Positions 25,198 to 63,413 are shown, numbered from the stretch's first letter. The stretch: 64,000 nucleotides of DNA from an uncultured Eubacteriales bacterium (GCA_942492885.1 OW818651.1:66181-130180), one strand, 5' to 3'. Numbers and translations: made by a program. Notes: a model not told the origin generated them from the letters alone.

Positions 25198-25271
25198 AGG
25201 GGTTTATCAAAATTTCAGAGATTAAATCAAAGAAGGATTACTTGCATAAACGTCCAAACGAGGTGAGCGAA

Positions 25272-25574
25272 ATGGCAAACAAAGGCGACTGGGTGCGCAT
25301 CCACAGCATCATTCTAACACCCGCGGAGCGTTCCGCCGCGGTGCCGGAGGACACGAAATCCGTGCCGCTGGAGCAGTGGACAAAAGGTTATCTGCACGCG
25401 GATACACCGTTGAGCAGCATAGCTTCGGTCACCACGCGCACGGGTCGCGTCGTCTCTGGCACGCTCGTGGACGAGACGCCGCATTATTCGCACAGCTTTG
25501 GCGACTTTGTGCCGGAGCTGCAGCATGCGGGGGACGAAGCATTCGCGTTCCTCTTCGGAGGTAATGCAAAATGA
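25272..25574 (+). CDS. ortA: 2-amino-4-ketopentanoate thiolase alpha subunit
   Basis: About 100-aa protein starting MANKGDWVRIHSI, immediately upstream of and overlapping (ATGA) the PLP-dependent OrtB-like gene. The track ORF start 25071 lies inside ord. Confidence 0.7.
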   Translation: MANKGDWVRIHSIILTPAERSAAVPEDTKSVPLEQWTKGYLHADTPLSSIASVTTRTGRVVSGTLVDETPHYSHSFGDFVPELQHAGDEAFAFLFGGNAK

Positions 25575-26968: not shown

Positions 26969-26997
26969 AATATCCTGAACAACATCGGGAGGAATAT

Positions 26998-27363
26998 ATG
27001 ATCAAACGCGAAGACGATTTTCAAACGAGGCGTGAACACCTGAAAAACCTCAACGACGAAGAGCTCAAGGCGCGTTTCTGGGCGCTCACGGGGCAGCTTG
27101 TCGACCCGCTGCTGGACTTGGCAAAGGAGAACACCTCGCCCGCCATCGAGCGCAGCGTGCTGTTGCGCATGGGCTTTAGCTCGCTGGAGGCAAAGGCGAT
27201 TGTCGACGGCTGCACGGAGAAGTGCCTACTGGGGCATGGTGCGGGCAATGTGGTCTACCGCTACAGCAAGCACACGGGGCAGGGGATTCGCGAAGCGGGG
27301 CTTGCGCTGCTCTCGCCCGCAAACATGGAAGAGGCCGCGCGCCTGTTTGGAGGCAAGCAATGA
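26998..27363 (+). CDS. oraS: D-ornithine 4,5-aminomutase small (S) subunit
   Basis: 121-aa protein whose stop overlaps the start of the large aminomutase subunit (ATGA at 27360-27363). Confidence 0.75.
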   Translation: MIKREDDFQTRREHLKNLNDEELKARFWALTGQLVDPLLDLAKENTSPAIERSVLLRMGFSSLEAKAIVDGCTEKCLLGHGAGNVVYRYSKHTGQGIREAGLALLSPANMEEAARLFGGKQ

Positions 27364-29579: not shown

Positions 29580-29580
29580 C

Positions 29581-30939
29581 ATGTTTGCGGACGTACTCAT
29601 CGCCGAGATCGGCTCCACCACCACGCTGGTCAGCGCGTTTGCCCTCGGCGACGCGCCGCATCTGCTTGGGCAAGGGCAGGCGGCGACGACGGTGCTCGAA
29701 GGCGACGTACGCACGGGGCTCAACCGCGCAATCGACGCGCTGAAGACAAATCTCGGTACGGCTCAACTCGAATACGGCGAGTTGCTTGCCTCGTCCAGCG
29801 CGGCGGGGGGATTAAAGATGTGCGTCCACGGGCTGGTCTATGACATGACGGTCAACGCGGCGCGCGCGGCGGCGCTCGGTGCGGGCGCAATCGTGCGCCA
29901 GACCACGGCGGGCAGGCTCACAGACGCAGACCTTGCTGAACAGCGCGCGATCAAACCCAACCTGATTCTGCTCGCAGGCGGAACCGACGGCGGAGAGCGC
30001 GAGACCGCACTTTACAACGCCAACCGCATCGCGCAGGAGGGTACGGGCGCACCCGTACTCTACGCGGGCAATGCGCAAAATCAAGGCGCGATCCGCAGTA
30101 TATTCGAGCAAGCACACGTTCCATTTTACATCGCAGAGAACGTATACCCGCGGCTCGATGCGCTGAATATCGAGCCGGTGCGGCGCGTGATCCACACCGC
30201 GTTTGAGAAGCACATCATATCCGCACCCGGCATGGAGCACATCCGCGATCTGGTCACGGGTTCCATCCTGCCCACGCCCGGCGCCGTCATGGAAGCCGCG
30301 ATGCTATTGTATGAGGAGATCGGCGATCTGTGCGTGCTTGACATCGGCGGCGCGACGACGGACGTACACTCGGTCACTCAGGGATCAGACGAAATTGCGC
30401 AGCTGCTCACCGCGCCGGAACCGTTCAACAAACGCACGGTCGAGGGTGATCTGGGATTGTTCGTCAACGCGCACCATCTCGTGGAGCAAATCGACGAAGC
30501 GAAGCTTTCGAAAGAACTGGGGCTGGATATTCCCGCTGTCATGCGGGATTACCGCGCAATTCCAGTTTCAGCGGAGCAATTTGCCCTGACATCTCGACTG
30601 TGTTTGGAGGCGGGACTGACCGCGATCAGCCGTCACGCGGGCAGACTAAGACACTATTACACCCCGCAAGGACGAGCAACCGCCGCCGAGGGCAAAGATC
30701 TTACGCTCGTGAAAACCCTCATCGGAACGGGAGGCGCGCTGACAAGGTTACCGGAGCGGGAAACGATCCTCCGCAGACTTGCGGACTGCAACACGGGCGG
30801 TACGATGCTCTACCCTAAGCCCGGGAGCATGCGGCTCGCGTTTGACGAGAGCTACATCATGGCGTCTCTCGGCGTGCTGGCTAAGACAAACCCGCTAGCG
30901 GCAAAAGCGCTATTAAAAAGCACATTGCGATTCCAGTAA
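29581..30939 (+). CDS. GlmL/MutL-like putative aminomutase reactivase (ASKHA-fold)
   Basis: 452 aa starting VLIAEIGSTTT. An acetate/sugar-kinase-like ATPase pattern recurs at LDIGGATTD. It sits between oraE and orr, as in described ornithine fermentation clusters. Confidence 0.65.
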   Translation: MFADVLIAEIGSTTTLVSAFALGDAPHLLGQGQAATTVLEGDVRTGLNRAIDALKTNLGTAQLEYGELLASSSAAGGLKMCVHGLVYDMTVNAARAAALGAGAIVRQTTAGRLTDADLAEQRAIKPNLILLAGGTDGGERETALYNANRIAQEGTGAPVLYAGNAQNQGAIRSIFEQAHVPFYIAENVYPRLDALNIEPVRRVIHTAFEKHIISAPGMEHIRDLVTGSILPTPGAVMEAAMLLYEEIGDLCVLDIGGATTDVHSVTQGSDEIAQLLTAPEPFNKRTVEGDLGLFVNAHHLVEQIDEAKLSKELGLDIPAVMRDYRAIPVSAEQFALTSRLCLEAGLTAISRHAGRLRHYYTPQGRATAAEGKDLTLVKTLIGTGGALTRLPERETILRRLADCNTGGTMLYPKPGSMRLAFDESYIMASLGVLAKTNPLAAKALLKSTLRFQ

Positions 30940-30961
30940 TCATTTTTTCAGGGGATACAGT

Positions 30962-32032
30962 ATGGCAAGTTACCCGCGCATCACGGCGGATTTAGCAAAA
31001 ATCAAACACAATATCGATGCTTTGTGCACACTCTGTTACGAAAACGGTGTGTCGATTGCCGCTGTCACCAAGGTGGTCTGCGCGGATGAACGCATCGTAA
31101 ACGTGCTCGAAAACAGCGCGGCTAGCATGCTGGCCGACGCGCGCACGGAAAATCTTGCGCGGCTCAAGACGAACAAGCCCAAGCTCCTTTTGCGCGCGCC
31201 GGCGCCAGAGGAGGCAGACGAAGCAGTCGAACTCGCCGACATTAGCCTTGTTTCGGAGATAGCGACCATTCGCGCGCTGGGCAAAGCCGCGCGCACGGCG
31301 GGGAAGACGCACCAGATCATACTGATGGTCGATCTCGGCGATCTGCGCGAAGGACTGCTCTTTTTGGAACGGGAGATGATCTATCGCGCGGCGGACGCGG
31401 CAAAGGCGGAGGACGGGATCGAGCTGGTCGGCGTCGGAACCAACCTCACCTGCTATGGCGCGATCATTCCGGACGAAACCAACCTCGGCGAACTCTGCCT
31501 GATCGCGGAGGAGTTGCGCGCGCGCACGGGGCTGCCCATCCCGATTGTCTCCGGCGGAAACTCCAGCTCGCTGGGGCTACTCAAACGCGGGATGGTGCCG
31601 GAGGGGGTTAACCATCTCAGGCTCGGCGAGTCGATCCTACTCGGAAACGACACCGCCGCCTGCCGCGTGATGAACGGGCTCTACGGCGACGCGTTTACGC
31701 TCTCTACCCGGCTCATCGAGGTGCAGCGAAAGCCATCCGTGCCCATCGGCGAAAGCGGGGCAAACGCGTTCGGCGAACACCCGACGTTTGAGAGCCTCGG
31801 CGATCAGGTACGCGGCATCTGCAAGATTGGGCGACAGGATACCGTGGCGGATGGACTCACTCCGCGTGACGGCGACATCAAGATCATCGGCGCGAGTTCG
31901 GATCACCTGATCGTCGACCTCACCAACGCGAAGGAATATCGTGTGGGCGATGTTCTGGATTTCACGCCGGACTACGGTGCGCTGCTTCGGGCTTACACGA
32001 GCGCATATGTCTTTCGTGATTACACTGAATAA
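30962..32032 (+). CDS. orr: Ornithine racemase (alanine-racemase-fold PLP enzyme)
   Basis: 356 aa with the N-terminal PLP-lysine context IAAVTKVVC. It is the last gene of the cluster. Confidence 0.75.
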   Translation: MASYPRITADLAKIKHNIDALCTLCYENGVSIAAVTKVVCADERIVNVLENSAASMLADARTENLARLKTNKPKLLLRAPAPEEADEAVELADISLVSEIATIRALGKAARTAGKTHQIILMVDLGDLREGLLFLEREMIYRAADAAKAEDGIELVGVGTNLTCYGAIIPDETNLGELCLIAEELRARTGLPIPIVSGGNSSSLGLLKRGMVPEGVNHLRLGESILLGNDTAACRVMNGLYGDAFTLSTRLIEVQRKPSVPIGESGANAFGEHPTFESLGDQVRGICKIGRQDTVADGLTPRDGDIKIIGASSDHLIVDLTNAKEYRVGDVLDFTPDYGALLRAYTSAYVFRDYTE

Positions 32033-38726: not shown

Positions 38727-38732
38727 TCCGCC

Positions 38733-38998
38733 ATAAGCTGTGAAGCGGAGATAACGGACGAATACGACCTCTTAGAGAGCAGGGGCGCTGGTGAAAGCCC
38801 CGCAGGAAACGATCGTTCAAATGGACCGCCGAGCGCGCAGGGGAACATGAGTATCCTGCGACGGGTCGTGACCGTTACATCGCGGGGAATGTGTTGGCAT
38901 TTCCGTAAAGAGCCCGATTTTCTGAATCGGGAAACAAGGTGGCACCGCGAGAGCATCGTCCTTGTTTCGGCGTAAGCGTCGAGACGAGGGCGTTTTTG
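38733..38998 (+). promoter_or_regulatory. T-box leader with Trp (UGG) specifier
   Basis: AGAGAG bulge (38774-38779), distal loop CTGGTGAAAG, and specifier context AAA-TGG-A (TGG at 38822-38824). T-box core GAAACAAGGTGGCACCGCGAG (38931-38951). The GAAACAAGG segment can pair with CCTTGTTTC (38960-38968) as an antiterminator. The competing 12-bp terminator stem spans 38957-38992 and is followed by a T-run. Confidence 0.8.
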
Positions 38999-39082
38999 TT
39001 TGCCGCAAAACAAGAAACGAATAAAACAAATATGAGAAAGGACGAAAGTCCGCGGCCAACGGCGGGCGAAGGAACAAACACC

Positions 39083-40318
39083 ATGATGACCTACCAAGAC
39101 TTCACAAACTATGTCAAGCTCTACCCCGACGAAAACGGCCGCTTCGGCGAATACGGCGGCGCCTATCTGCCGCCGCAGCTCGTGCCCGTGTTCAAAGAGA
39201 TCGACGACGCCTACGAGACCATCTGCCACAGCGCGCAGTTCATCAGCGAGCTTCGGCGCATCCGCAAGGAGTTTCAGGGCAGACCCACACCCGTCTACCA
39301 TGCGGAGCGGCTCAGCCGTCTGCTCGGCAAATCCCAGATCTACCTCAAGCGCGAAGACCTCAACCACACCGGCGCGCACAAGCTCAACCATTGCATGGGT
39401 GAAGGACTGCTCGCCAAATTCCTCGGCAAAAAGAAGCTGATCGCCGAGACAGGCGCGGGACAGCACGGCGTGGCGCTCGCCACCGCCGCCGCCTACTTCG
39501 GACTCGCGTGCGACATCTACATGGGTGAAGTGGACATTGCCAAGCAAGCCCCGAACGTCACCCGTATGAAGATGCTCGGCGCGCGCGTTATCCCCGTGTC
39601 TCACGGGCTCAAAACGCTCAAAGAGGCGGTGGACGCGGCGTTCACGGCGTACCTCAACGAATATGACGACGCGATCTATTGCATCGGCTCCGTGGTCGGC
39701 CCGCACCCCTTCCCGAAGATGGTGCGCGACTTCCAGATGGTGGTCGGCATCGAAGCCAAAGAGCAGTTTGTGGACATGACCGGACTTCTGCCGGATGTGG
39801 TCTGCGCCTGCGTCGGCGGCGGCTCGAATGCGGCGGGGCTGTTCACAACGTTCTACGAAGAACCCGTTGAGATCGTCGGCGTGGAGCCGATGGGACGCGG
39901 CACCAGCATTGGCGACAACGCGGCCTCGATCACGTTTGGCAAAAAGGGCGTGCTGCACGGCTTTGAGAGCTTGCTCTTACAGGACGACAAGGGCGAGCCG
40001 CTGCCCGTCTACAGCATCGCGAGCGGTCTGGATTACCCCTCCGTCGGTCCGGAGCATGCGTTTATGCACGACGTCGGCCGTGTGCAGTATACCAGCGTGA
40101 CGGACGAAGAGGCGATGGAAGCGTTTTTCTACCTCAGCCGCTACGAGGGCATCATTCCCGCGATCGAGAGCGCGCACGCGCTGGCGTATGCCATGCGTTT
40201 TGCCCGCGAGAAGAACCGCGGTTCCATCCTCGTCAATCTCTCCGGCAGAGGCGACAAGGACATCGACTACGTCTTTGAGCACTATGGCTACGGCGATAGA
40301 TTCTTTGATAAGAAGTGA
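39083..40318 (+). CDS. trpB: Tryptophan synthase beta-chain-like PLP enzyme (stand-alone)
   Basis: [24 protein letters not shown] (PLP lysine), GAGQHGVA and GGGSNAAG motifs. The start MMTYQDF at 39083 is used; the upstream part of the track ORF is the T-box leader. No trpA is adjacent. Confidence 0.85.
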
Positions 40319-45684: not shown

Positions 45685-46893
45685 TTATTCTGCGCGCAGG
45701 CAGTCGATCAGCGCGCGAAACTCCGGCGTGTGCCAGAGCACGGGCACCGGATAGATCGGGTTTGCTTCCTTCATCGCCCATTTGATCATCTGCGGGATAT
45801 CTTTCTCCTGAATGAAGTCGAAGCCGGACTGAATCTTCATATCTGTGTTCATGCGGCGAATCTCGCGGATAAAGGCCTTCGCCTTCTCCTCGTCGTCCTT
45901 GCCGTTGATGCCGACGGCTTCCGCCAGCCGCGCTAACTTAAAGTAGACCGCGGAGCCGAAGCGTTCCATCACGCAGGGGAGAATCACCGCGTTGGCGAGG
46001 CCGTGCGGCGTGCCATAGAGCCCGCCAAGTGTATGCGCAACCCCGTGCACATAGCCCACGCAGGCGCGCGTGAAGGCGGCACCGCCGTAGAACGCGGCGA
46101 GCTGCATGTTGTAGCGCGCGGTGATGTCGGTGCCGTCCTTATAGACTTTCTCCAGATTTTCAAACACCAGCTTCACGGCCTCTATGGCGAGTTTGTCCGT
46201 CGATTTCGGCGCAAACAGGTTGGTGTATGCTTCCACGGCGTGGGTGAGCGCGTCCATACCCGTCGTACTCGTGATGTGCGGCGGCAGGCCAACGGTGAGC
46301 TCCGGGTCGAGCACCGCATAGCGCGGGATCAAGCAAAGATCCTGAATCGCGTATTTGTGGTGCGTTGCGCGGTCGGTCACCACGGCGGCGATGGTCGTCT
46401 CCGAGCCGGTGCCCGCCGTGGTCGGCACGGCAAACAGCGGCGGGAGTTTTTTGAGCACGCGCAACGTGCCGCCCATCTTCGCGACGCTCTGGCGCGGCTT
46501 TACGATGCGCGCGCCCGCGGCTTTTGCGCAGTCCATCGCGGAGCCGCCGCCGAAGGCGACGATGCCGTCGCATTTGTTGTCGACATAGAGCTTTCTGGCA
46601 GCCTCGATGTTTTCGATGGAAGGATTCGGCTCTACACCATCGTAGACAATGCCCTTGAGCCCCGCCGCATCACAAGCAGCAAAAAAGGAATCCAAGAGAC
46701 CCAGTTTGCGCAGCACGGCATCGGTCACGATCAGCACGCGGGTTACGCCCTTGCTCTTGATGAGCGCCGGCAGTTTTTTGATGCTGCCTGGCCCGCTGAG
46801 CAGCTCCGGCTGACGCCAGGGCATGAGGTACATGGCGGAGGTGAGTACAAACTGAAACACGCGGTACCAGATTTTCTGCAACATCCAAAGCAT
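45685..46893 (-). CDS. Iron-containing (group III) alcohol dehydrogenase
   Basis: 402 aa with GGGSAMDCAK and histidine-rich metal-site motifs (HGVAH..G..HG). GGAGG ribosome-binding site 8 nt upstream. Confidence 0.85.
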   Translation of the reverse strand: MLWMLQKIWYRVFQFVLTSAMYLMPWRQPELLSGPGSIKKLPALIKSKGVTRVLIVTDAVLRKLGLLDSFFAACDAAGLKGIVYDGVEPNPSIENIEAARKLYVDNKCDGIVAFGGGSAMDCAKAAGARIVKPRQSVAKMGGTLRVLKKLPPLFAVPTTAGTGSETTIAAVVTDRATHHKYAIQDLCLIPRYAVLDPELTVGLPPHITSTTGMDALTHAVEAYTNLFAPKSTDKLAIEAVKLVFENLEKVYKDGTDITARYNMQLAAFYGGAAFTRACVGYVHGVAHTLGGLYGTPHGLANAVILPCVMERFGSAVYFKLARLAEAVGINGKDDEEKAKAFIREIRRMNTDMKIQSGFDFIQEKDIPQMIKWAMKEANPIYPVPVLWHTPEFRALIDCLRAE

Positions 46894-47147
46894 GGTTTCG
46901 CGCCTCCAAACTAAAATTTCGGGATAGTGTGAGTAGAGATGGTATGTTTCATTCTAACATGCGCGCACGACTCTCCGCAATCGACGCGTAATGCAAAAAC
47001 AGAATCGAAAATAAAGAACAACGTTCTCCACCAGACAAACAAGATCATGGCGTGATATACAAACATGTGCGATTCAAGCCATACATCGGAACACGGAATA
47101 GGGGTACTTAATCCGCTGAAATATTTGTCAAATTGTATATACAGTAA

Positions 47148-47194
47148 AATCGAAAAAACGCGAATTATGTCGATTAATCTCGAAGAATAGCGAA
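47148..47194 (+). repeat. Five same-orientation CGA(A/T) cores at an exact 10-bp period (0A-box-like heptamers)
   Basis: aaTCGAA (47148-54), acGCGAA (47158-64), TGTCGAt (47168-74), TcTCGAA (47178-84), TaGCGAA (47188-94). Five consecutive 10-nt print blocks start with cga. The array abuts a possible -35 element, TTGAAA at 47199-47204. Confidence 0.85.
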
Positions 47195-47264
47195 ACCGTT
47201 GAAATTTGTTATTTTGTAGTTTAATGTCAGTTTATTGGGGAAAATTAACAGGGAGGACAGACAT

Positions 47265-47591
47265 GTGAGGTCAAAAATCGATCAGGAGTTACTCCGGCTC
47301 GGCGCACCGACAGGGCGGCTTGGATATGTGCAAATGGCGATGACACTCGAACTCATCATGCAGGAGGAGCAGGTGACCAGCACCACGCGCGTACTATATC
47401 CGAAAGTAGCGGAGCGCTGCGGCACTAAGCCTGCGCGCATCGAACGCAACGTGCGCGAGGAGATCAAAGCCATCTGGAACTTTGGCAACCAGAAGCGGCT
47501 CGATCAGCTTTTCATCAATCGCGGAAAGTATCCGCCGGGAAACAAAGAGTTCTTATATACCATCGCGCGTTACATGCAGCAGAACAGCTAA
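47265..47591 (+). CDS. Stand-alone Spo0A C-terminal (DNA-binding) domain protein, no receiver domain
   Basis: Aligns by eye to the Bacillus Spo0A effector domain: LG.P....GY, T.VLYP.VA, ARIER..R..I...W..GN...L..LF, P.NKEF. GGGAGGA lies 7 nt before an in-frame GTG at 47265. The track start is TTG 47235. Confidence 0.7.
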   Translation: MRSKIDQELLRLGAPTGRLGYVQMAMTLELIMQEEQVTSTTRVLYPKVAERCGTKPARIERNVREEIKAIWNFGNQKRLDQLFINRGKYPPGNKEFLYTIARYMQQNS

Positions 47592-47649
47592 AAGCAGGCA
47601 ATCGTCTTCCAAACAACATTCGGAAACAACGCCGGTTTTCGGCGCAAAT

Positions 47650-47684
47650 AAAAAGCGGGGGATTGATTTTTCCTCCGCTTTTGC
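47650..47684. terminator. Bidirectional terminator between convergent genes
   Basis: Stem gcggggga pairs with tcctccgc (one G-U pair), with an A-run before and a T-run after. Confidence 0.65.
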
Positions 47685-47699
47685 GTTGCCTTTGGTGGA

Positions 47700-48524
47700 T
47701 TAGAATGAGCGCACGGCCTCAATGGTCTCACTGCGCGGATAGACATATTCCATCTTGGGCGGCATAGAGTTATAGACGCGTTCGATCTCTAAGATTCCCT
47801 TTGCGTAGCGACCCTTGACCAGCACGCTTTCCATCTTGAGGTTCAGGCAGAGGATGGATGCCTTCGCGCCGTCGGGAATCTGGCGAAGTTGCTTGCCATA
47901 GGGCATGCCGCTGAGCGTGATGCGATCCGAGCCCGCGCTGGTTGCCTGCACGACGGGGAAGAGCTGTGCTTCGCCCTTCTCATCGTAATAGCACAAAAAC
48001 TTCAGCGAGTCCAGCTGGGAAAAGAGCTGCTGACCAACCAACGGCAACGCCTTTTTCTCGCTCTTGCGCACAAACACGGCTTTCACGCGGGAGAGGATTG
48101 CGCCGAGGATGATTGCGCCCATCGGAAGCGGCTGGATGGCACTGATGCGCTCCAGATTGAGATAAAAAATGCGGTAAAACCCCATGTAGGAGTTATAACG
48201 GAAGAGCGGCTTGTTGTTGTAGAGGTCATATTCTGTTCCGGTGTTCGCGCTGTGGGTATAGGTTGCCCTGCCGGAAAGATAGCGCTTGTCCGCGCTGAGC
48301 ACGAGAAAACCAACACGGGGGCGATCCAGAATGAAACGCTTACTCAGCCCCGCGGAAAACTGCCCGAACGTCAGCGCATGATCGCCCAGCGCCTGAATGG
48401 ACGAGATGAACGAAAGATGCGGATAGCCGCTCTCGTCCTCGGTGGCGAGCACGCCGACCTTGCTGTCGCAATCCATCATCTCGATAGAAGCATCGTCAAT
48501 CCTGTCAAAACTGAGTGTTTTCAT
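47700..48524 (-). CDS. Pyridoxamine-5'-phosphate-oxidase-like (split-barrel flavin-binding) family protein
   Basis: N-terminal half KVGVLATEDESGYPHLSFI...RPRVGFLVL matches the PNPOx-like pattern. At 274 aa it is roughly double a single domain. GGAGGA ribosome-binding site. It is the last gene of the GRE operon. Confidence 0.5.
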   Translation of the reverse strand: MKTLSFDRIDDASIEMMDCDSKVGVLATEDESGYPHLSFISSIQALGDHALTFGQFSAGLSKRFILDRPRVGFLVLSADKRYLSGRATYTHSANTGTEYDLYNNKPLFRYNSYMGFYRIFYLNLERISAIQPLPMGAIILGAILSRVKAVFVRKSEKKALPLVGQQLFSQLDSLKFLCYYDEKGEAQLFPVVQATSAGSDRITLSGMPYGKQLRQIPDGAKASILCLNLKMESVLVKGRYAKGILEIERVYNSMPPKMEYVYPRSETIEAVRSF

Positions 48525-54121: not shown

Positions 54122-54211
54122 GGAGAGTTGGCTGAGTGGTCGAAGGCGCATGATTGGAAATCATGTTTACGGGTAACCGTAACTAGGGTTCAAATCCCTA
54201 ACTCTCCGCCA
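54122..54211 (+). tRNA. tRNA-Ser (anticodon GGA), CCA encoded
   Basis: Acceptor stem GGAGAGT pairs with ACTCTCC. Anticodon stem CATGA/TCATG carries the loop TTGGAAA. There is a long variable arm and a T-arm TAGGG-TTCAAAT-CCCTA. The 3' end reads GCCA. Confidence 0.9.
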
Positions 54212-54245: not shown

Positions 54246-54707
54246 GGTGCACCTTTCCAAATAGTGTGATTTGATTGACCTGCTCCCCGAAAAAGTAGTC
54301 AACCTAAAAGAGAGAAAATGATAAACTGAAGAAAAGCAAAAGGTGGACGAAATGAAGAAGAGTAATTACACAGAGGAGCAGACTGACTAGGACGAAAGTA
54401 TGAAACAGCTTTTTTTCCAGCGAGAAGAAAGTACATTCGCAAATTCTAGTGTAAATAATTCATAATAATTAACAAATAATATATCGAATAAATGCTATAC
54501 TTATTTGAATGAATTGAAGCAAGCGAGGTACTAAAAGAAGTACAAAGCAAGTATCGCGGTGCAATTTGGCCAAGCTCCGGTTATCAGATCGCCGAAATCC
54601 AGTTGCGGCAAAGGTCTGTTCGATGCTCCATTAAGGCAGTCACTGCCGTAAGGCAAGCCAACAACCATCCCACGACGGATATCGGTTTGGAAGGAGCTCT
54701 GAAACAA

Positions 54708-57700
54708 GTGAATACTTTACTCATCGGCATCTTACTATCAGCAGGTGCCTTTTTGTTTTTTTTCGTGATACTATTGCTGTTTTTGCGCGAACGCAGCGCC
54801 AACAAGCGCGTCGCTGCCCTCTCGGTGGAAGACCCGCAGACATATGCGCGTCAGGCGACCATCGCGCACATGGCGTCCAAGAAGCGCAGCTCGCTTGACT
54901 GGCCGCTGTCGCGCCTGAAGAGCAACTATAAGCTCATTCAAGCGGCTTGCGAGGATCTCAACGAGAATTTGCTCAAGAAGGTAGACGTGCCAGCACCGGC
55001 GGAGTGGCTGCTCGACAACTTCTACATCATTGAATCCCAATATCGGATTTTGCTCTCCGAGCTGAGGCGAAAGGAATATCTGCGCCTTCCGGTGCTACAA
55101 TCCGGCCCATACAAAGGGTATGCGCGCGTCTATGCGATGGCGGTTGAACTCATTGCCGGAGGCAACAATACGCTGGATGATGCGGCGCTGCTGAACTACT
55201 TTTCGGCCTACCAGGCAAAGAACATCCTGCTTGAGCGGGAGGTGCGCGCCCTGCCGATCGTATTGCGGCTTGTGAACATTGAGGATATTCGTTATCTTTG
55301 CGAGGACATCATCAGCGAGGTCAAGAGCCGCAAGCGGGCGGACGCGGTTTATGATGCGTTTTTCAAGGAGACATCGGACAAAGCTACCAAATTTCACACG
55401 GCTCTTGTCGCAAGCATAAAATCGGGAGCGGGGGTCGACCTCACGTTTGCCGAGCACTTATGCTATCGCCTGCGCCGTGCGGAGCGAAACCCGGTGGACG
55501 CGATGCGGATGCTGGAGACTATTCTATCCAAACTCGGAACATCCGCGGACGAAATCACGCAGATGGAGCACAGCGCGCAATCCCTCGCCACGGTGGCGAT
55601 GGAGAGCAGCGTCAAGCGCCTGCACTACTTTTCTTCGCTGGACTGGGAAGCGTTTCTGCCAGCCGCAAGCCGGATTGAGCAAATTCTGCGCGCGGACAGC
55701 GACATGGTATACCAAAACATGGATCTCTCCACGCGGGATCGCTATAAGCAGCAGGTTTCGCGTATCTCCGCTGCCAGCGAATGTTCGGAGGTGCATACCG
55801 CGCGGGAAGCCTTGAAGCTTGCCGCCGCAGCACGCGGGCAGGGAGTGGATTCCGCGCGGACGGGACACGTTGGCTATTACCTTGTCGACAAGGGAGTAGG
55901 CGAGCTCAAACGCCTCTTGACGGGCAAGAAACACAGTCGATCTGGAAGTGAACGCGGAAAGATGCGCTGGGCGCTGTATCTGCTCGCGATTGCGGGCATC
56001 ACCGGACTGATCGCTCTTCTTGGTGTGATTTACGGTGTGCACGCGGCAACAAACGCAAAGCTGCTTTACGGCGTTCTATGCGCGCTGGCGCTGCTGATGC
56101 CTGCCTCGGAGATCGCGGTGTATCTGGTCAACCGCGTCGTCAGCCGGGCTCTAAAACCTTCTTTAATGCCGAAGCTGGAGCTGAAAGACGGCATCCCGGA
56201 AGAGCTGAGCACCATGGTGATCATTCCGACACTCCTGCCGGATGAAAGCCGCGTTGCAGGTGTGTTGCAAAACATGGAGGAGCATTATCTTCGAAACCGC
56301 GAGCAGAACCTGTATTTTGCGATCATCGGTGCATTCGGGGATGCTTGCTCGGCGCATTTGCCGGCGGACGATAGCGTCATTTCTGCCGCGCTGGCGGGGA
56401 TTGAAGCGCTCAATCATCAGTATGCCGATGGAGGCGAGATCTTCTTTTTCTTTCATCGGGAGCGGCAGTATAACGCGAGCAACGATGTTTGGATCGGATG
56501 GGAACGCAAGCGTGGTGCCATCATGGAATTCAACGATCTTGTACAGGGTGCGCCGGATACGAGCTTTGCCTGGGCGTCCTCCGAAACGCCGCCCTTTGGA
56601 AAGATTCGCTATGTGATCACGCTCGACAGCGAGACCATTCTGCCCATCGGTATGGCGAAGCGATTGATCGGAACCATGGCGCACCCGCTGAATCGACCCT
56701 TTGTTGACGAAGCGCGCTGTGTTGTGACAAGAGGGTATGGCCTGATTCAGCCGCATATTGATATTGAGAGCGCGGAGGGTACGCTGTTTTCGCGCATTTT
56801 CACCGATCAGGACGGAATCGATCCGTATTCCGGCGCGCTGTCGGATGTCTATCAGGATCTCTTTGGCGAAGGCATATTCACGGGAAAAGGCATCTACGAC
56901 CTTGCGACATTCCAGACCGTGCTCAAGGGAACCATCCCGGAGAACACGGTGCTGAGCCATGATTTGCTGGAGGGTTCCTACCTGAGAACCGGGCTTGCCT
57001 CCGGGCTGACCATGGTGGACGGGTTTCCTGCGCAGTATCAGGCGTATGTTGCAAGGCAGCGCCGCTGGATGCGCGGGGATTGGCAGCTGCTCACCTACAT
57101 TCTGCCGAACATTCGGGACATCGACAACAACCGGATGAAGAATCCGCTCTCCGCCCTCTCCCGATGGAAGATTTACGATAACCTGCGACGCAGTTTGATT
57201 TCGCCTGCGCTGTTGCTATTGGCGGAATTGGCGGTGTTCGTGCTGCCGGGGAATGTGTTCGTGTGGTTTGGTTTGCTGCTGCTGACGATCATGTTGCCGC
57301 TGATGGGCACGATATTGAGCAGCGCGCTATCTTTATTTCGGAAAAATGCGCGCACAAGGCGATATCTTCCGGTGGTTGATTCGCTCAAGTCCGCTCTGTT
57401 GCAGGGATTGCTGGAACTCACGTTTTTACCCTATCAGGCGTGGCTTTCGGTCAGCGCGATTCTACTCACGCTCATGCGCATCTGGGTGACGAAAAAGAAC
57501 CTGCTTGAATGGGTGACCTCTGCCGATTCGGAAGCAAAGCCATTGGCAACACTCGGCGGATACCTGCGCTTTATGCAGGCGGCGATCTGGCTGTCGCTCT
57601 TATGTTTTGCGGCATTGGCGGTCACGGGGCAATGGGATCGCTTGCTGATGACTCTGCCGTTGATTCTCTTGTGGATGATGTCGCCCGTAATTGCGTTTGC

Positions 57701-60700
57701 CATCAGCAGGGAAACAAAGGCCAAGAACGAGATTGAGCCCGCAAGCAGGGCAGAGCTTGAAAAAATAGCGCGGAAAACATGGCGGTACTTTGAGGAGTTC
57801 AGCGGGAAAGAAACGCACCATCTTGCGCCGGACAACTATCAGCAGGAGCCGTATCGGGGCGTTGCCGCGCGCACTTCGCCGACCAATATCGGCTTTGGTC
57901 TGCTCGCGACGATGACGGCCCGGGACATGGGGTTTATCGGCACGATTGATATGATCAGTCTGGTGGAGAAAACGATTGCGACTATCGAAGGGTTGCCCAA
58001 ATGGAACGGCCATCTCTTTAACTGGTACGATACATCAACACTCAAACCGCTCAATCCTGCCTATGTTTCAACGGTGGACAGCGGGAATCTCACAGGATAC
58101 CTCATGACGCTTGCACAGGGGTTGGAGGAATATCTCGAACGACCCCTGTTCGACATTCGCTTTTTCGACGGGCTGATCGCAACGATCGCCAGCGCGGAAA
58201 AAAAGCAAGCGTTCCTTTGGAAGACGCGCGTGCGTGAGGCGAAGGTCGCCGTTTCAAAGGCGGGCACCTCATCCATCTCCGGACTGCGCATCATGCATCT
58301 TGCCTTGCTGGAGTGGCAGGATTTGCTGGATGACGCGACCATTGAAGGCGATGTTTGGCTGGAGAAGGCAAAAAAACAGTTGCAGCAACAGCAAATTGCG
58401 CTGGAAGCCTATTTTCCCGCGGCTCTTCTGCCGCGCGAACTGCCTGCGGCGGAGGACACATCCGAGGATCTCGGCGCACTCCTGCAACTCATCGATGGCG
58501 CTTGCGCCTTTGGCAAACTACCCGTAAGGCAGCGGGATGCTTCAGCGCTTGCCGGGCGCATGCTCGAGCGGGATACAGACGCGCAGGCACCGCTCGACCC
58601 GGAGATTGTGCCGTGGCTCAACGGCATACAGGTTGCGCTGCTCAAGTCGTCGGAGGCATCGCTTCACGAGGTTTTGCGATGTACATCGTTGATCAGTCGC
58701 ATCCGCGCGCTGGTCGCCGCGGTTCGATTCCGCCCGCTTTACAATGAGAAGAAGAAGCTGCTCTCGATCGGATTTAATCTTGAAGAGAGTAAGCGCACGG
58801 ATTCTTACTATGACCTTCTTGCGTCGGAAGCACGGCTGGCCAGCTATCTTGCGATTTCAAACGGAGAAATTCCGTCCACACACTGGTTTCGCATGGGACG
58901 GACGCTGACGATCGTTGGCAAATACAAAGGCTTGGTCTCGTGGACGGGAACGATGTTTGAGTATTTGATGCCGCTGCTCATCATGAAAAGCTATCGCAAT
59001 ACGCTGCTGGACGAGGCCTGCTCGTTTGCGGTGAGAAGTCAGATGAAGTTTGCGAAAACGCGCGATATGCCATGGGGCATGTCTGAGTCCGGCTTTAACT
59101 CGCTCGATAAGCGAAACGACTATCAATACAAGGCAATCGGCGTTCCGTGGCTTGGGCTCAAGCGCGGCTTAAACGAGGATTCTGTCGTCGCGCCGTATGC
59201 AACGTTTCTGGCGCTGCTTGTGGATCCGGAGGAAGCGATCAAAAACATTGCCCGCCTCAAGGAGGAGCAGATCGAAGGCCCGTACGGCTTCTATGAATCG
59301 GCGGACTACACGAAAGAACGGCTGTACTTTGAACCCAAGCGCGTGATCATCAAGAGCTTTATGGCGCATCATGAAGGGATGAGCCTGCTTGCGATCAATG
59401 AGTATCTCAACCGAAACCGCATGCAGGAACGATTTATTCAGAACCCGGAGATTCGCGCCTATCGTCACCTGCTGCAGGAGAAGGTTCCCGCTAACATCGT
59501 CGTGACCAAGGCGACGAAGGAAAAGCTTGCGCCGCTCTCGTTCAAATTATCCAAACAGGAGCTTCCGGTGCGCATGATGGGTCGCCCCGATCTGGCTTTG
59601 CCGCGCGTGCATATCCTATCCAACGGAAACTACTCTGTGATGCTGACGGACGCGGGCACGGGATTCAGCAAAAACAAGATCGCTGCCATGACAAGGTGGC
59701 AGGAGGACAGCACGCTGGATCACTTCGGAACGTTTTTGTATCTGCGTGATATGGAGAGCGGGGCGGTCTGGTCTTCTACCTATGCGCCGCTGAACAGACT
59801 GCCGGAGCGTTACGAGGTCGAGTTTGCAGACGACAAGGCGGTCTATCTTCGCACTGACGGGGACATTGACACGAAGACGGAGATTTTCGTCGCCACGGAT
59901 GACGACGCCGAGATTCGCAAGCTGACGCTGAAGAACAACTCGGATACCGTAAAGACGATCGAGATCACCAGCTACTGCGAAATCGTGCTTGCCCCGCGCG
60001 CGGCTGATCAGGCGCACATGGTCTTTAGCAACCTGTTTGTGGAGACCGATTATCACGCGCCAAGCGGCATGGTCAGCGCAAAACGCCGACCAAGATCGGA
60101 CAAAGAAAAGGTCCTGTGGTTCGGCGCGTTTCTGGTGCGCAGTGCCGACCAGGACGAAGAGATCGAGTATGAAACCGACCGCGCGCAGTTCCTTGGTCGT
60201 GGAAACGATGTGGGATGTCCGCAGGCGCTCCGGCGCAGCCAGCCACTCTCCGGCACCGTTGGTGCGGTGCTTGACCCGATCATCAGCCTGCGTACGCGGG
60301 TCGTGATTGAGCCGGGCAGAACGGCAACGGTCTCGTTTGTGATGATCACAGCGGACCGAAAAGACGCGCTGCTCTCGATCGCCAAGCGGTATGAGACTCC
60401 GCGGGATATTGAACTGAGTGCGCACCGCGCTTTTGAGCGAAGCCGGATTGAGAACAAATATCGGGATTTCAAAGCAAACGAGATCACGCTGTTTTTGAAC
60501 ATGCTCTCGCATCTGCTGTTCCTAAGCCCTGCACGACGGGCAAACAGCAAGGAGATTGCGCAAAATAACAGCGGACAATCTGCGCTCTGGCGATATGGTA
60601 TTTCGGGCGATCTGCCTATCCTGCTGGTTGAGCTCACCGCTGAAACCCAAATTCCACTGCTGCACGAGGCGATCAAAGCATATGAGTACTGGGGCGTCAT

Positions 60701-63413
60701 GGATATCAGCGCGGATATGATCGTCATTGTCAGCGAAGAGAACGCCTACACCTCACCGCTTCGGGACTTGGTGACGGGCATCGTTGGTTCATATAAGCGA
60801 TATACCGCCATGCTTTGCCCGGATGAAATCGTGGTGCTGAACCGAAAGGATCTGACACAGGCGGACGTGCAGCTGTTAATCTCTGCCGCGCGGATCTATC
60901 TAGCCGGCGGAAAAGGCAATATTGAAAAACAGCTGAAGGGGTTTGCCGGGCGGCAGCTTCCGCAGCGAACGCGCTTTACGCGAGAAATCGCATCTGATCC
61001 AACAGAAATTGCGCTGCAGCGGGAACTGCTCTATGACAACGGCATCGGCGGATTTAGACCCGACGGGAAAGAATATTGCATCCAGCTGGAGCACGAGAAT
61101 ACGCCCGCGCCGTGGATCAACGTGATAACAAACCCGAACTTCGGCTTCATTGTTTCGGAATCCGGCGCGGGCTATACTTGGAGCGAAAACAGCCATGAGT
61201 TCCGCCTGACACCTTGGTCAAACGATCCGGTGTCCGATCCGGCGGGCGAGACGATCTATCTCCACGACAGAGACACAGGCAGTATTTTTGCGCCGACAGC
61301 TCTGCCGATTCGGGATGACGGGATCTATCGTGTGCGGCACGGGTTTGGGTATTCGGTGTTTGAACACACCTGTCACGGCATTGGGCAGACGTTGACGCAG
61401 TTTGTCCCTGTCAAGGACACGCTCAAGATCAGCCTGCTCGTGTTGAAAAACGAGACGGACATGGTGAGGCGGCTCGGCGCGACGTATTATGTGCGCCCGG
61501 TCCTGGGCGTAAGCGACCAAATTACCGCGATGCACATTCAAACATCACAAAACGAGTTCGGCGCATTGCTGATGCAAAATCCATTTAACGAAGATTTCCC
61601 CGGGAGAATCGGTTATCTGGATTGTTCGGTCTCAGAACGCTCCGTGACGGGCGATCGCAAGGAGTTTTTCGGTTCCGGCGGGCTAAGATCACCCGCGTCT
61701 CTCTCGCGGGACTGCTTATCCGGCGAGTTGGGCATCGCCCTTGATCCCTGCGGCGCGATGCGGATCGATCTCGAACTACAACCACACGAAGAAAAGACGA
61801 TCGTATTCCTGCTGGGCGTTGCTGACAACGCGGCAGAGGTGCCGCGCGTGAGCGCCGAGTACCGGAGCGCTGAGAAGGCGCAGGCGGCGTTGCAAGCTGT
61901 CACCGATAGCTGGGATGCTGCGCTCGGACAAGTGCGCGTTGAGACGCCGGATACAGCCATGAACCTGTTGCAGAACGGCTGGCTACTCTATCAGGTCATC
62001 GCCTGTCGCCTTTGGGCGCGCACCGGATTCTACCAGTCCGGCGGCGCGTATGGATTTCGCGATCAGTTGCAGGATGTACTGGCAGTTGCGGCAAGCAATC
62101 CGGCGATTGCGCGAAGACAGATATTGCTGCACGCAAAGCATCAGTTTGTGGAAGGCGATGTGCTGCACTGGTGGCACGCGCCGTTGGATAACGGCGTGCG
62201 CACGCGTTTTTCCGATGATTTTCTCTGGTTGCCGTATGTGACGGCAGAATATGTTCGCATCAGCGGAGATTTTACGATTCTGCAAGAGGCGGTTCCGTTC
62301 CTTCAGGGAACACCGCTATCCGAACAGGAGCATGAGCGCTACGAGCGCGCGACACAATCAAGCGAGGAGGCAACGCTATACGAGCATTGTCTCAGGGCAA
62401 TCCAAAGAGGGCTTTCCTTTGGCGAGCACGGCTTGCCACTGATGGGCGGCGGAGACTGGAACGACGGTATGAACGCCGTCGGCGAAAAAGGGTTGGGGGA
62501 AAGTGTCTGGCTCGGGTGGTTCCTTTCCGACGTTCTTGCGAAGTTTTCGCCGATTTGCATCGAGCTAGGCGACGTATCGGCGGCGGACGCGTTGCTTGCA
62601 ACCCGCGAAACGCTGCTGGCGGCTATAGAAGAACACGCTTGGGACGGCGGCTGGTATCGGCGCGCGTATTTTGACGATGGCGCCGCGCTAGGCTCGATTC
62701 ATAATGTTGATTGCAAAATTGATTCGATTGCGCAATCCTGGTCGGTTCTGTCCGGCGGCGGTGAACCGGAGCGGGCGCGCAAGGCGATGCAATCGCTGGA
62801 GGACTATCTGGTGAATCGAGACGAAGGGCTCATCAAGCTTTTAACCCCGCCGTTTGACAAAGGCAAGAGCGAACCTGGCTATATCAAGGGCTATGTTCCG
62901 GGCGTTCGTGAAAATGGCGGACAATACACGCACGCAGCCGCTTGGGTGATTGCCGCGTTTGCAAAGCAGGGTGAAGGGGACAAGGCGCTGGCGCTCTATG
63001 ACCTGATCAATCCGATTCATCATACAAGTAGTTATCGCAGCTATGCAAAGTACAAAACGGAGCCCTACGCACTTGCTGCGGATGTTTACGCCGTGTGGCC
63101 GCATGTTGGGCGCGGGGGATGGTCCTGGTACACCGGAGCCGCCGGGTGGTTCTATCGCGCGGGGCTGGAGTCCATCCTCGGCATCAAAAAACTAGGGGAA
63201 TTCCTCGTCATCGATCCTTGCATTCCGGCGCATTGGCAGACGTTTGGCGTGGAATACCGCTATGGCAACGACTTGTATCACATCACCATCCGCAACCCAA
63301 ACCGGGTGCAGTCAGGCGTGGTGAGCAAGTCGATGGATGGAGGAACGTTCTTCGGCGCGCTCGCGCTACAAAACGACGCAAAGGAGCATTGGGTCGATGT
63401 GTTGATGGGGTAA
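54708..63413 (+). CDS. Cyclic beta-1,2-glucan synthase-like giant multidomain protein (GT84 glycosyltransferase + GH94 phosphorylase-type domain)
   Basis: One uninterrupted frame. N-terminal transmembrane helix and the AEWLLDNFYIIESQ region. GT84-type motifs ITLDSETILP (about 56.62 kb), VLSHDLLEGS and QRRWMRGDWQ (about 57.06 kb). A block of transmembrane helices at 57.19-57.72 kb. GH94-type motifs YGFRDQLQD (about 62.05 kb), LHWWH and GGGDWNDGMN (about 62.45 kb). GTG 54708 is preceded by GGAAGGAG. The track start is TTG 54603. Confidence 0.85.
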   Translation: MNTLLIGILLSAGAFLFFFVILLLFLRERSANKRVAALSVEDPQTYARQATIAHMASKKRSSLDWPLSRLKSNYKLIQAACEDLNENLLKKVDVPAPAEWLLDNFYIIESQYRILLSELRRKEYLRLPVLQSGPYKGYARVYAMAVELIAGGNNTLDDAALLNYFSAYQAKNILLEREVRALPIVLRLVNIEDIRYLCEDIISEVKSRKRADAVYDAFFKETSDKATKFHTALVASIKSGAGVDLTFAEHLCYRLRRAERNPVDAMRMLETILSKLGTSADEITQMEHSAQSLATVAMESSVKRLHYFSSLDWEAFLPAASRIEQILRADSDMVYQNMDLSTRDRYKQQVSRISAASECSEVHTAREALKLAAAARGQGVDSARTGHVGYYLVDKGVGELKRLLTGKKHSRSGSERGKMRWALYLLAIAGITGLIALLGVIYGVHAATNAKLLYGVLCALALLMPASEIAVYLVNRVVSRALKPSLMPKLELKDGIPEELSTMVIIPTLLPDESRVAGVLQNMEEHYLRNREQNLYFAIIGAFGDACSAHLPADDSVISAALAGIEALNHQYADGGEIFFFFHRERQYNASNDVWIGWERKRGAIMEFNDLVQGAPDTSFAWASSETPPFGKIRYVITLDSETILPIGMAKRLIGTMAHPLNRPFVDEARCVVTRGYGLIQPHIDIESAEGTLFSRIFTDQDGIDPYSGALSDVYQDLFGEGIFTGKGIYDLATFQTVLKGTIPENTVLSHDLLEGSYLRTGLASGLTMVDGFPAQYQAYVARQRRWMRGDWQLLTYILPNIRDIDNNRMKNPLSALSRWKIYDNLRRSLISPALLLLAELAVFVLPGNVFVWFGLLLLTIMLPLMGTILSSALSLFRKNARTRRYLPVVDSLKSALLQGLLELTFLPYQAWLSVSAILLTLMRIWVTKKNLLEWVTSADSEAKPLATLGGYLRFMQAAIWLSLLCFAALAVTGQWDRLLMTLPLILLWMMSPVIAFAISRETKAKNEIEPASRAELEKIARKTWRYFEEFSGKETHHLAPDNYQQEPYRGVAARTSPTNIGFGLLATMTARDMGFIGTIDMISLVEKTIATIEGLPKWNGHLFNWYDTSTLKPLNPAYVSTVDSGNLTGYLMTLAQGLEEYLERPLFDIRFFDGLIATIASAEKKQAFLWKTRVREAKVAVSKAGTSSISGLRIMHLALLEWQDLLDDATIEGDVWLEKAKKQLQQQQIALEAYFPAALLPRELPAAEDTSEDLGALLQLIDGACAFGKLPVRQRDASALAGRMLERDTDAQAPLDPEIVPWLNGIQVALLKSSEASLHEVLRCTSLISRIRALVAAVRFRPLYNEKKKLLSIGFNLEESKRTDSYYDLLASEARLASYLAISNGEIPSTHWFRMGRTLTIVGKYKGLVSWTGTMFEYLMPLLIMKSYRNTLLDEACSFAVRSQMKFAKTRDMPWGMSESGFNSLDKRNDYQYKAIGVPWLGLKRGLNEDSVVAPYATFLALLVDPEEAIKNIARLKEEQIEGPYGFYESADYTKERLYFEPKRVIIKSFMAHHEGMSLLAINEYLNRNRMQERFIQNPEIRAYRHLLQEKVPANIVVTKATKEKLAPLSFKLSKQELPVRMMGRPDLALPRVHILSNGNYSVMLTDAGTGFSKNKIAAMTRWQEDSTLDHFGTFLYLRDMESGAVWSSTYAPLNRLPERYEVEFADDKAVYLRTDGDIDTKTEIFVATDDDAEIRKLTLKNNSDTVKTIEITSYCEIVLAPRAADQAHMVFSNLFVETDYHAPSGMVSAKRRPRSDKEKVLWFGAFLVRSADQDEEIEYETDRAQFLGRGNDVGCPQALRRSQPLSGTVGAVLDPIISLRTRVVIEPGRTATVSFVMITADRKDALLSIAKRYETPRDIELSAHRAFERSRIENKYRDFKANEITLFLNMLSHLLFLSPARRANSKEIAQNNSGQSALWRYGISGDLPILLVELTAETQIPLLHEAIKAYEYWGVMDISADMIVIVSEENAYTSPLRDLVTGIVGSYKRYTAMLCPDEIVVLNRKDLTQADVQLLISAARIYLAGGKGNIEKQLKGFAGRQLPQRTRFTREIASDPTEIALQRELLYDNGIGGFRPDGKEYCIQLEHENTPAPWINVITNPNFGFIVSESGAGYTWSENSHEFRLTPWSNDPVSDPAGETIYLHDRDTGSIFAPTALPIRDDGIYRVRHGFGYSVFEHTCHGIGQTLTQFVPVKDTLKISLLVLKNETDMVRRLGATYYVRPVLGVSDQITAMHIQTSQNEFGALLMQNPFNEDFPGRIGYLDCSVSERSVTGDRKEFFGSGGLRSPASLSRDCLSGELGIALDPCGAMRIDLELQPHEEKTIVFLLGVADNAAEVPRVSAEYRSAEKAQAALQAVTDSWDAALGQVRVETPDTAMNLLQNGWLLYQVIACRLWARTGFYQSGGAYGFRDQLQDVLAVAASNPAIARRQILLHAKHQFVEGDVLHWWHAPLDNGVRTRFSDDFLWLPYVTAEYVRISGDFTILQEAVPFLQGTPLSEQEHERYERATQSSEEATLYEHCLRAIQRGLSFGEHGLPLMGGGDWNDGMNAVGEKGLGESVWLGWFLSDVLAKFSPICIELGDVSAADALLATRETLLAAIEEHAWDGGWYRRAYFDDGAALGSIHNVDCKIDSIAQSWSVLSGGGEPERARKAMQSLEDYLVNRDEGLIKLLTPPFDKGKSEPGYIKGYVPGVRENGGQYTHAAAWVIAAFAKQGEGDKALALYDLINPIHHTSSYRSYAKYKTEPYALAADVYAVWPHVGRGGWSWYTGAAGWFYRAGLESILGIKKLGEFLVIDPCIPAHWQTFGVEYRYGNDLYHITIRNPNRVQSGVVSKSMDGGTFFGALALQNDAKEHWVDVLMG

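Follow-up and report, generated by a model that had tools for sequence, protein, structure and literature searches.

A helically phased array of 0A-box-like repeats upstream of a gene for a receiverless Spo0A effector domain in an uncultured Eubacteriales bacterium

Introduction

Spo0A is the textbook example of a phosphorylation-gated developmental master regulator. It makes base-specific contacts with G2, C4 and G5 of the 0A box, and single substitutions at these positions reduce the affinity of the Clostridioides difficile DNA-binding domain approximately 10-fold (PMC3485338). Degenerate boxes are present at many Spo0A targets, and the isolated DNA-binding domain binds legitimate targets without being phosphorylated (PMC3485338). 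Typical sites consist of two boxes that are separated by 3 bp and give footprints of 25-30 bp (PMC2731898), and steeply cooperative occupancy has been reported for Spo0A~P (PMC12090719; PMC3485338). Tandem 0A boxes, as represented by the complex 1LQ1 and by the abrB, spo0A and phage phi29 and Nf promoters, are direct repeats with a start-to-start distance of 10 bp, located at or upstream of sigma-A promoters. In the autoregulation of spo0A itself, several boxes precede the gene, as in the case of the Pv and Ps promoters of B. subtilis and of spo0A in C. difficile.

In addition to the full-length regulator, effector domains that lack a receiver are known from two sources. Truncated, effector-domain-only spo0A genes occur on phages and were proposed to act independently of the phosphorylation signals of the host (Schwartz et al. 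2023, mBio; PMC10294663); these phage-borne stand-alone copies have been discussed by sequence analysis only (PMC10294663). The second source is the laboratory, where the Spo0A C-terminal domain has been used as an isolated or constitutively active protein. A literature search, which was not exhaustive, found no stand-alone Spo0A_C protein with a defined target or function.

Here, we describe a locus within a stretch of 64 kb, referred to as the window, in which a gene for a natural 108 amino acid long Spo0A effector domain is preceded by an array of phased boxes. The array shares the CGAA core, the direct-repeat orientation, the 10-bp distance and the position at or upstream of a sigma-A promoter with the tandem 0A boxes. 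In contrast to these, which are usually two in number, the family represented by the window has four to six slots in register, does not conserve the TG of TGNCGAA, with G at the second box position in only 21% of its boxes, and shows an additional A/G-A-A preference 3' of the core. As in spo0A autoregulation, several boxes stand before a Spo0A-type gene, but a single sigma-A-type promoter is present, and the output of an autoregulatory loop would be independent of the phosphorelay. Like the truncated phage genes, the gene encodes a DNA-binding domain without receiver; unlike them, it is chromosomal, syntenic and located among housekeeping and metabolic genes. The protein corresponds to the laboratory fragment, yet it is a naturally evolved and strongly conserved paralog that is only about 28% identical to Bacillus Spo0A-C and has invariant residues of its own.

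Organisation of the array

Five heptamers of identical orientation constitute the array (Table 1). The initial annotation had described them by CGA(A/T) cores starting at 47151, 47161, 47171, 47181 and 47191 with a 10-bp phasing, and a direct reading of the sequence agrees. The repeat unit is best given as the 5-bp core [T/G]CGA[A/T], which starts at 47150, 47160, 47170, 47180 and 47190 on the plus strand and thus keeps an exact 10-bp period. After the last nucleotide of box 5 (47194), 4 bp (47195-47198) precede TTGAAA. From the end of the array to the GTG start codon at 47265 the distance is 71 bp, so that the placement proposed earlier, about 70 bp before the gene and 4 bp before TTGAAA, is borne out.

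Table 1. Features of the locus, with positions counted from the first nucleotide of the window; slots are given relative to the -35 element.
Feature	Position	Strand	Remarks
Box 1, aaTCGAA	47148-47154	+	core TCGAA 47150-47154; slot -49
Box 2, acGCGAA	47158-47164	+	core GCGAA 47160-47164; slot -39
Box 3, TGTCGAt	47168-47174	+	core TCGAT 47170-47174; slot -29
Box 4 (anchor box), TcTCGAA	47178-47184	+	core TCGAA 47180-47184, extended as TCGAAGAA; slot -19
Box 5, TaGCGAA	47188-47194	+	core GCGAA 47190-47194; slot -9
Palindrome TGTATATACA	47134-47143	.	perfect, 10 bp; 6 bp upstream of box 1; kept in most close relatives
-35 element TTGAAA, sigma-A-type	47199-47204	+	from cross-genome conservation
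-10 element TAATGT	47222-47227	+	17 bp after the -35 element; TATTGT in distant relatives
Ribosome-binding site AGGGAGG	47251-47257	+	7 nt before GTG; kept in relatives
Gene for 108-aa stand-alone Spo0A effector (C-terminal) domain	47265-47591	+	GTG start
Hairpin, likely bidirectional terminator	47651-47682	.	A-run before, T-run after; convergent genes on either side

The array is real and far beyond chance. The pattern KCGAW-N5-KCGAW-N5-KCGAW has three matches in the 64-kb window, all of them overlapping within the array, and shuffled sequences lead to an expectation of 0.04. Elsewhere in the window there is no second in-phase run of at least three boxes with a 10-bp period. With periods from 5 to 15 bp and either strand considered, just one further run exceeded two boxes in phase, a run of three with a period of 9 bp; two-box pairs are few and remain at chance level. 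In 20,000 dinucleotide-preserving shuffles of the intergenic region (371 bp, 39% G+C), a run of at least three boxes appeared twice and a run of five never (0/20,000).

The likeness to the 0A box is partial. Compared with TGNCGAA, the boxes in the window match four to five of the six specified positions. A pooled consensus of 122 boxes from the family reads A-(A/T)-c-T-C-G-A-A-(a/g)-A-A, where the way in which boxes were searched leaves C4, G5, A6 and A7 essentially invariant; position 2 is occupied by C in 54%, by A in 23% and by G in 21%, and position 1 by T in 33%. The original label '0A-box-like' applies to the CGAA core only; the 10-bp tandem geometry is likewise that of Spo0A sites, but the TG of TGNCGAA is not conserved. 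The suggestion that the 10-bp head-to-tail arrangement corresponds to an established binding mode of Spo0A is in line with the sites of two boxes 3 bp apart (PMC2731898), and in the window the same spacing in the same orientation extends over five boxes.

Promoter and transcription unit

The promoter was identified from cross-genome conservation and the likely terminator by folding. TTGAAA, which had been listed as a possible -35 element, is genuine, because it is conserved and paired with a conserved -10 element at a spacing of 17 bp. The pattern TTGnnn-N17-T(A/T)(A/T)TGT occupies the corresponding position in 42 of 48 related loci when applied strictly and in 46 when the -10 element is relaxed, and the distance between the -35 element and the start codon ranges from 59 to 84 bp among these loci. 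Pairwise identity amounts to 0.86 across the promoter block as opposed to 0.29, the random level, further upstream. Transcription would start near 47233-47236. A simple promoter and terminator scanner called nothing within 46800-47800; it missed the promoter because the -10 element deviates from the consensus. A sigma-H-type promoter overlapping GCGGAAC/GAAAT was judged by eye and dropped due to its wrong spacing.

The hairpin downstream of the gene contains a 12-bp stem that is part of the minimum-free-energy fold of 47592-47699 (z = -3.4 in comparison to shuffles). It probably functions as a terminator, which suggests that the Spo0A_C gene is monocistronic. A search for structured RNA in 46700-47800 with Rfam returned only a chance snoRNA match (E = 1). 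Upstream of the gene, the -35 region has an imperfect direct repeat, with AATCCGCTGAAAT...ATTTGTCAAATTGTA at 47110-47137 and AAACCGTTGAAAT...ATTTGTTATTTTGTA at 47193-47218; this repeat is not kept in relatives and is therefore probably due to chance.

The receiverless effector domain

The initial annotation had assigned only a Spo0A C-terminal domain to the downstream gene, and both domain search and structure prediction corroborate this. The 108-aa product matches Pfam Spo0A_C (PF08769) over profile positions 1-103 of 104 (E 4.6e-24; 84.9 bits with a cut-off of 25), and Spo0A_C is its sole Pfam domain. Identical 108-aa products are given by the gene calls of the ENA and Logan assemblies. A receiver (REC) domain with a phospho-accepting aspartate is absent, and the reading frame extends at most 10 codons upstream of the start codon, to a TTG at 47235. 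The lack of the REC domain and the single Pfam domain imply that the protein is not a Spo0A ortholog. The 64-kb window contains no second Spo0A_C gene, and neither spo0A nor any other sporulation gene was found among its approximately 40 annotated ORFs.

Among sequences of known structure, the product matches 1FC3/1LQ1 (E 1e-10). The AlphaFold2 model (pLDDT 93.1) predicts six helices and superimposes on the DNA-bound Spo0A effector domain of 1LQ1 with a TM score of 0.86-0.90 and an rmsd of 1.7-1.9 Å. Foldseek matches with E <= 0.001 were restricted to chains of 1LQ1 and 1FC3 (TM 0.79-0.90, rmsd 1.7-2.2 Å). The modelled protein thus has the six-helix effector-domain fold with the helix-turn-helix found in 1FC3/1LQ1. 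It also shares the R-x-E-R-x-x-R motif of the 1LQ1 protein: R58, E60, R61 and R64 align to R211, E213, R214 and R217 of B. subtilis Spo0A, which we take to be the base-contacting residues of the 1LQ1 complex. This recognition-helix motif (R58-x-E60-R61-x-x-R64) is invariant in 37 family members, and so are the family-specific residues K55, N62, E65 and E66, which are located in or next to the recognition helix. Since the recognition helix does not vary inside the family, there is no co-variation between protein and site to be read.

The family of proteins of about 108 amino acids comprises 68 clusters with 62-94% identity to the product encoded in the window. A scan of species-representative genomes yielded 49 loci, all of them in metagenome-assembled genomes labelled Christensenellaceae, Christensenella, Oscillospiraceae, Eubacteriales or Clostridia. 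Six of the loci reside on complete chromosomes (OY762962.1, OY762290.1, OY764017.1, OY762278.1, OY771363.1 and OY776633.1). The neighbourhood is conserved in about 40 loci and consists of genes for ThiF and an iron-dependent alcohol dehydrogenase (Fe-ADH) in divergent orientation, the Spo0A_C gene, and convergent genes for a PNPOx-like protein, a glycyl-radical-enzyme activase and the corresponding enzyme. At 88-99%, the conservation of the Spo0A_C protein exceeds that of its syntenic neighbours.

The possibility that the 108-aa gene is phage-borne was considered and rejected on account of the conserved chromosomal neighbourhood and the lack of any relative among IMG/VR viral contigs. A tblastn search against GenBank phages returned 11 weak matches with 23-34% identity; the four phage-labelled matches that were examined are full-length spo0A genes on 'UNVERIFIED' contigs. 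The GenBank entries for these four contigs (L052-L055; MT835504.1, MT835737.1, MT835781.1 and MT835718.1) are labelled 'UNVERIFIED Bacteriophage sp.' and give human faeces as their source, and their spo0A genes encode both the receiver and the effector domain. In L052 and L053, a protease-like coding sequence, which was taken as spoIVB, ends just upstream of spo0A, and both look like bacterial DNA because of this gene order.

Conservation of the array in related genomes

For the comparison of upstream regions, 42 non-redundant sequences were anchored on the first T of the -35 element, and 125 bp were examined. A lack of conservation of the phasing and the heptamers in related genomes had been named beforehand as an outcome that would refute the interpretation, and the array passes this comparison. 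Its phasing and position are conserved: 130 of the 149 cores share a single phase, corresponding to slots -59, -49, -39, -29, -19 and -9. The numbers of cores in these slots are 9, 32, 25, 16, 39 and 8, respectively (n = 42). Single boxes are gained and lost among relatives, while the register to the -35 element stays constant, and the five perfect cores of the window mark the upper end for the family.

The occupants of the slots differ in their conservation. In the anchor slot -19 (box 4), TCGAA is present in all 29 close relatives and in the majority of the distant ones; the loci with a core in this slot include those in which the protein is just 69-79% identical. Slot -49 (box 1) carries TCGAA in 26 of the 29 close relatives, whereas slot -39 (box 2) is filled by GCGAA in 19, TCGAA in four and GCGGA in four of them. 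Slot -9 (box 5) contains GCGGA in 20 and TCGAA in five of the close relatives, and a perfect core in 8 of the 42 loci. Box 3 in slot -29 was rated the least conserved box of the window, with tgTAGat in its place in many close relatives. Slot -59 coincides with the palindrome TGTATATACA in the window, and an additional in-phase TCGAA is found there in L018, L023, L025, L026, L032 and L035. The palindrome may or may not belong to the operator, and a second regulator that acts as a dimer might recognise it.

The 12 most distant loci, with proteins that are 69-86% identical and flanks that are otherwise unalignable, have 22 of 26 cores in phase within 75 bp of the -35 element. The nominal binomial p value is about 1e-18, calculated for loci that are related and not fully independent. 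All six slots are still visible in the majority consensus of these 12 loci. Pairwise identity is 0.79 across the array and drops to 0.29, the random level, upstream of about -67; inside the array, cores are more conserved than spacers (0.86 versus 0.71). The array stays with the gene even in loci that lack the divergent Fe-ADH gene or have it at a distance. Across 350 kb of related DNA, the Spo0A_C promoter is essentially the only place with arrays in which at least three of five slots are filled.

Candidate binders of the array

Slots and register to the -35 element are fixed while the occupants are replaceable, which gives the array the look of a multi-site protein operator on one face of the helix. 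Our best reading is an operator on which Spo0A-type domains would line up head to tail on the same face. Protein-free explanations, in which the phased A/T-rich repeats would produce curved DNA or stimulate the promoter in the manner of an UP element, could draw on the A-rich spacers (AAAAAAC, AAGAAT), which return with each turn of the helix immediately before the -35 element. We regard them as highly improbable, because the invariant feature is C-G-A-A and not an A-tract, because the spacers are less conserved than the cores, and because curvature does not need a CG step. Several response-regulator families bind tandem direct repeats at 10-11 bp spacing, and one-turn repeats would suit an unrelated direct-repeat regulator, for example of the OmpR/PhoB type, to which the Spo0A_C gene would be an incidental neighbour. 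Such a regulator would also explain why just five of the seven 0A-box positions are shared. It appears rather improbable to us, however, since the array accompanies the Spo0A_C gene across the whole family even when the other neighbours differ, the invariant CGAA coincides with the stretch of the 0A box that is conserved best, and the conserved neighbourhood offers no candidate regulator gene.

A Spo0A-type binder would be either the full-length, phosphorylated regulator or the product of the gene itself. If Spo0A~P used the array as its operator, the paralog would belong to the Spo0A regulon and be switched on or off at the onset of sporulation; the multiple weak boxes lacking G2 would set a high cooperative threshold, and the paralog may bind as well. 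In its CGAA core and its head-to-tail spacing of 10 bp, the array agrees with tandem 0A boxes, and its placement resembles that at Spo0A-activated promoters such as spoIIG and spoIIE, where boxes lie upstream of and abut the sigma-A -35 element. Furthermore, some Christensenellaceae are reported or predicted to form spores (PMC12536801), and degenerate boxes, which are common among Spo0A targets (PMC3485338), could equally be deliberately low-affinity sites for Spo0A~P. We nevertheless consider control by Spo0A~P, the main rival of the reading preferred below, unlikely. The base-specifically contacted G2 is retained in about one fifth of the 122 boxes, spo0A and other sporulation genes are missing from the annotated ORFs of the window, and no similar array precedes any other gene in the 350 kb of related DNA. 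A profile of 12 diverse Spo0A proteins was run against a set of 5.8 billion proteins; of 8,000 scored candidates the best 120 were compared, and none could be linked to the lineage or assigned to one of the six complete related chromosomes, so that the lineage may still possess a full-length Spo0A.

Binding of the array by the gene's own product, which would turn the array into an autoregulatory operator, is the reading that we tentatively prefer, although we hold it to be slightly less than an even call. It is favoured because the array is tied to the gene across the family and unique in the available DNA, and because the box consensus departs systematically from that of Spo0A in a family with specific invariant residues in and next to the recognition helix. 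Boxes that systematically lack G2, in combination with these residues, fit a binder with a specificity different from that of Spo0A proper.

Proposed mode of action

The proposed operator would be promoter-proximal and consist of [T/G]CGAA boxes, four to six in number, that follow each other head to tail every 10 bp in a register that is fixed to the -35 element of the weak sigma-A-type promoter TTGAAA-N17-TAATGT. Relative to the predicted transcription start, the boxes would lie at about -86 to -40; the centre of the anchor box would be near -53 and the others near -43, -63, -73, -83 and -93. Spo0A-type effector monomers may occupy box after box along the same side of the DNA and contact each other head to tail, in the manner of the two Spo0A-C molecules on tandem 0A boxes, so that occupancy would rise steeply with protein concentration. 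As the candidate binder has no receiver, the phosphorylation-driven dimerisation via the N-terminal domain that operates in Spo0A cannot apply. With the 108-aa receiverless effector domain as binder, control would be exerted mainly by its own concentration; because its DNA binding would need no phosphorylation, the locus would constitute an autoregulatory loop.

The direction of this regulation is a matter of slight preference. Activation, and hence a self-reinforcing switch, is slightly favoured over repression, because all boxes are upstream of the -35 element and the non-consensus -10 element is itself conserved. At the phi29 A2b promoter, Spo0A represses by occluding an UP element (PMC2731898), and an array abutting the -35 element in an A/T-rich stretch could have a similar repressive effect. 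More speculatively, the receiverless paralog could be an autonomous, phosphorylation-independent bistable switch, in which a head-to-tail polymer on an operator of five to six slots activates its own weak promoter with a box specificity of A-C-T-C-G-A-A-R-A-A instead of TGTCGAA; we consider this combined proposal doubtful. Such a module might act in parallel to the Spo0A phosphorelay, compete with it or replace it in an environmental clade of Christensenellaceae-like Clostridia.

The locus provides a concrete and conserved candidate target for one family of receiverless Spo0A proteins, with a phased operator and a fixed promoter register, and thereby makes the role of such domains accessible to simple experiments. 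Cooperative binding of the protein to its own array would make it a natural response-regulator output domain that has been freed from its sensor, as well as a small and ultrasensitive component for use in synthetic circuits. Binding by full-length Spo0A would instead place the paralog in the Spo0A regulon as a conserved new member, which could amplify or compete with Spo0A.

Other receiverless Spo0A proteins

Stand-alone Spo0A_C proteins number in the thousands in databases: the family profile retrieved 5,594 cluster representatives at E <= 1e-3, many of them 110-190 amino acids long. Several polypeptides (P0069, P0071, P0332, P0073, P0076 and P0115) contain three to five tandem Spo0A_C domains, an architecture of which we know no description. 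One example is found in L056 (6001-8922), derived from an AT-rich organism (28% G+C), where two adjacent multi-domain genes encode proteins of 454 and 462 amino acids and bofA is located nearby; P0071 has four domains. The gene glmS is located directly downstream of the second multi-domain gene in L056 and of the multi-domain gene in L057 (34-1353). Tandem fusions of Spo0A_C fit the idea that these domains act side by side along DNA. Upstream of the genes with four tandem Spo0A_C domains, a phased KCGAW array was not found and the promoters are of the ordinary TTGACT-N17-TATAAT type. Autoregulatory arrays are therefore not general among receiverless Spo0A_C genes.

A phased arrangement is also seen in a different lineage, upstream of the full-length spo0A gene of L055. 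There, three canonical tandem 0A boxes, TTCGACA-aaa-TTAGACA-aaa-ATCGACA, have a 10-bp period, in what is a single example. In contrast to the array in the window, these boxes are on the opposite strand relative to the gene and keep TGT even where CG is lost.

Further features of the window

Several regions of the window outside the Spo0A_C locus encode additional features. An ORF of 2,936 amino acids (54603-63413) combines GH94 supersandwich and catalytic domains with a glucoamylase-like domain and resembles cyclic beta-1,2-glucan synthase, which seems unusual in a Clostridia-class genome. A cluster for oxidative ornithine degradation (24139-32032) includes 2,4-diaminopentanoate dehydrogenase (Ord), the thiolase subunit OrtB, a B12 enzyme similar to ornithine/lysine aminomutase, a MutL-like reactivase and a racemase. 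A T-box leader (38731-38966; 99 bits) overlaps the start of a gene for a PLP-dependent enzyme (38939-40318), and a tRNA gene is located at 54122-54208.
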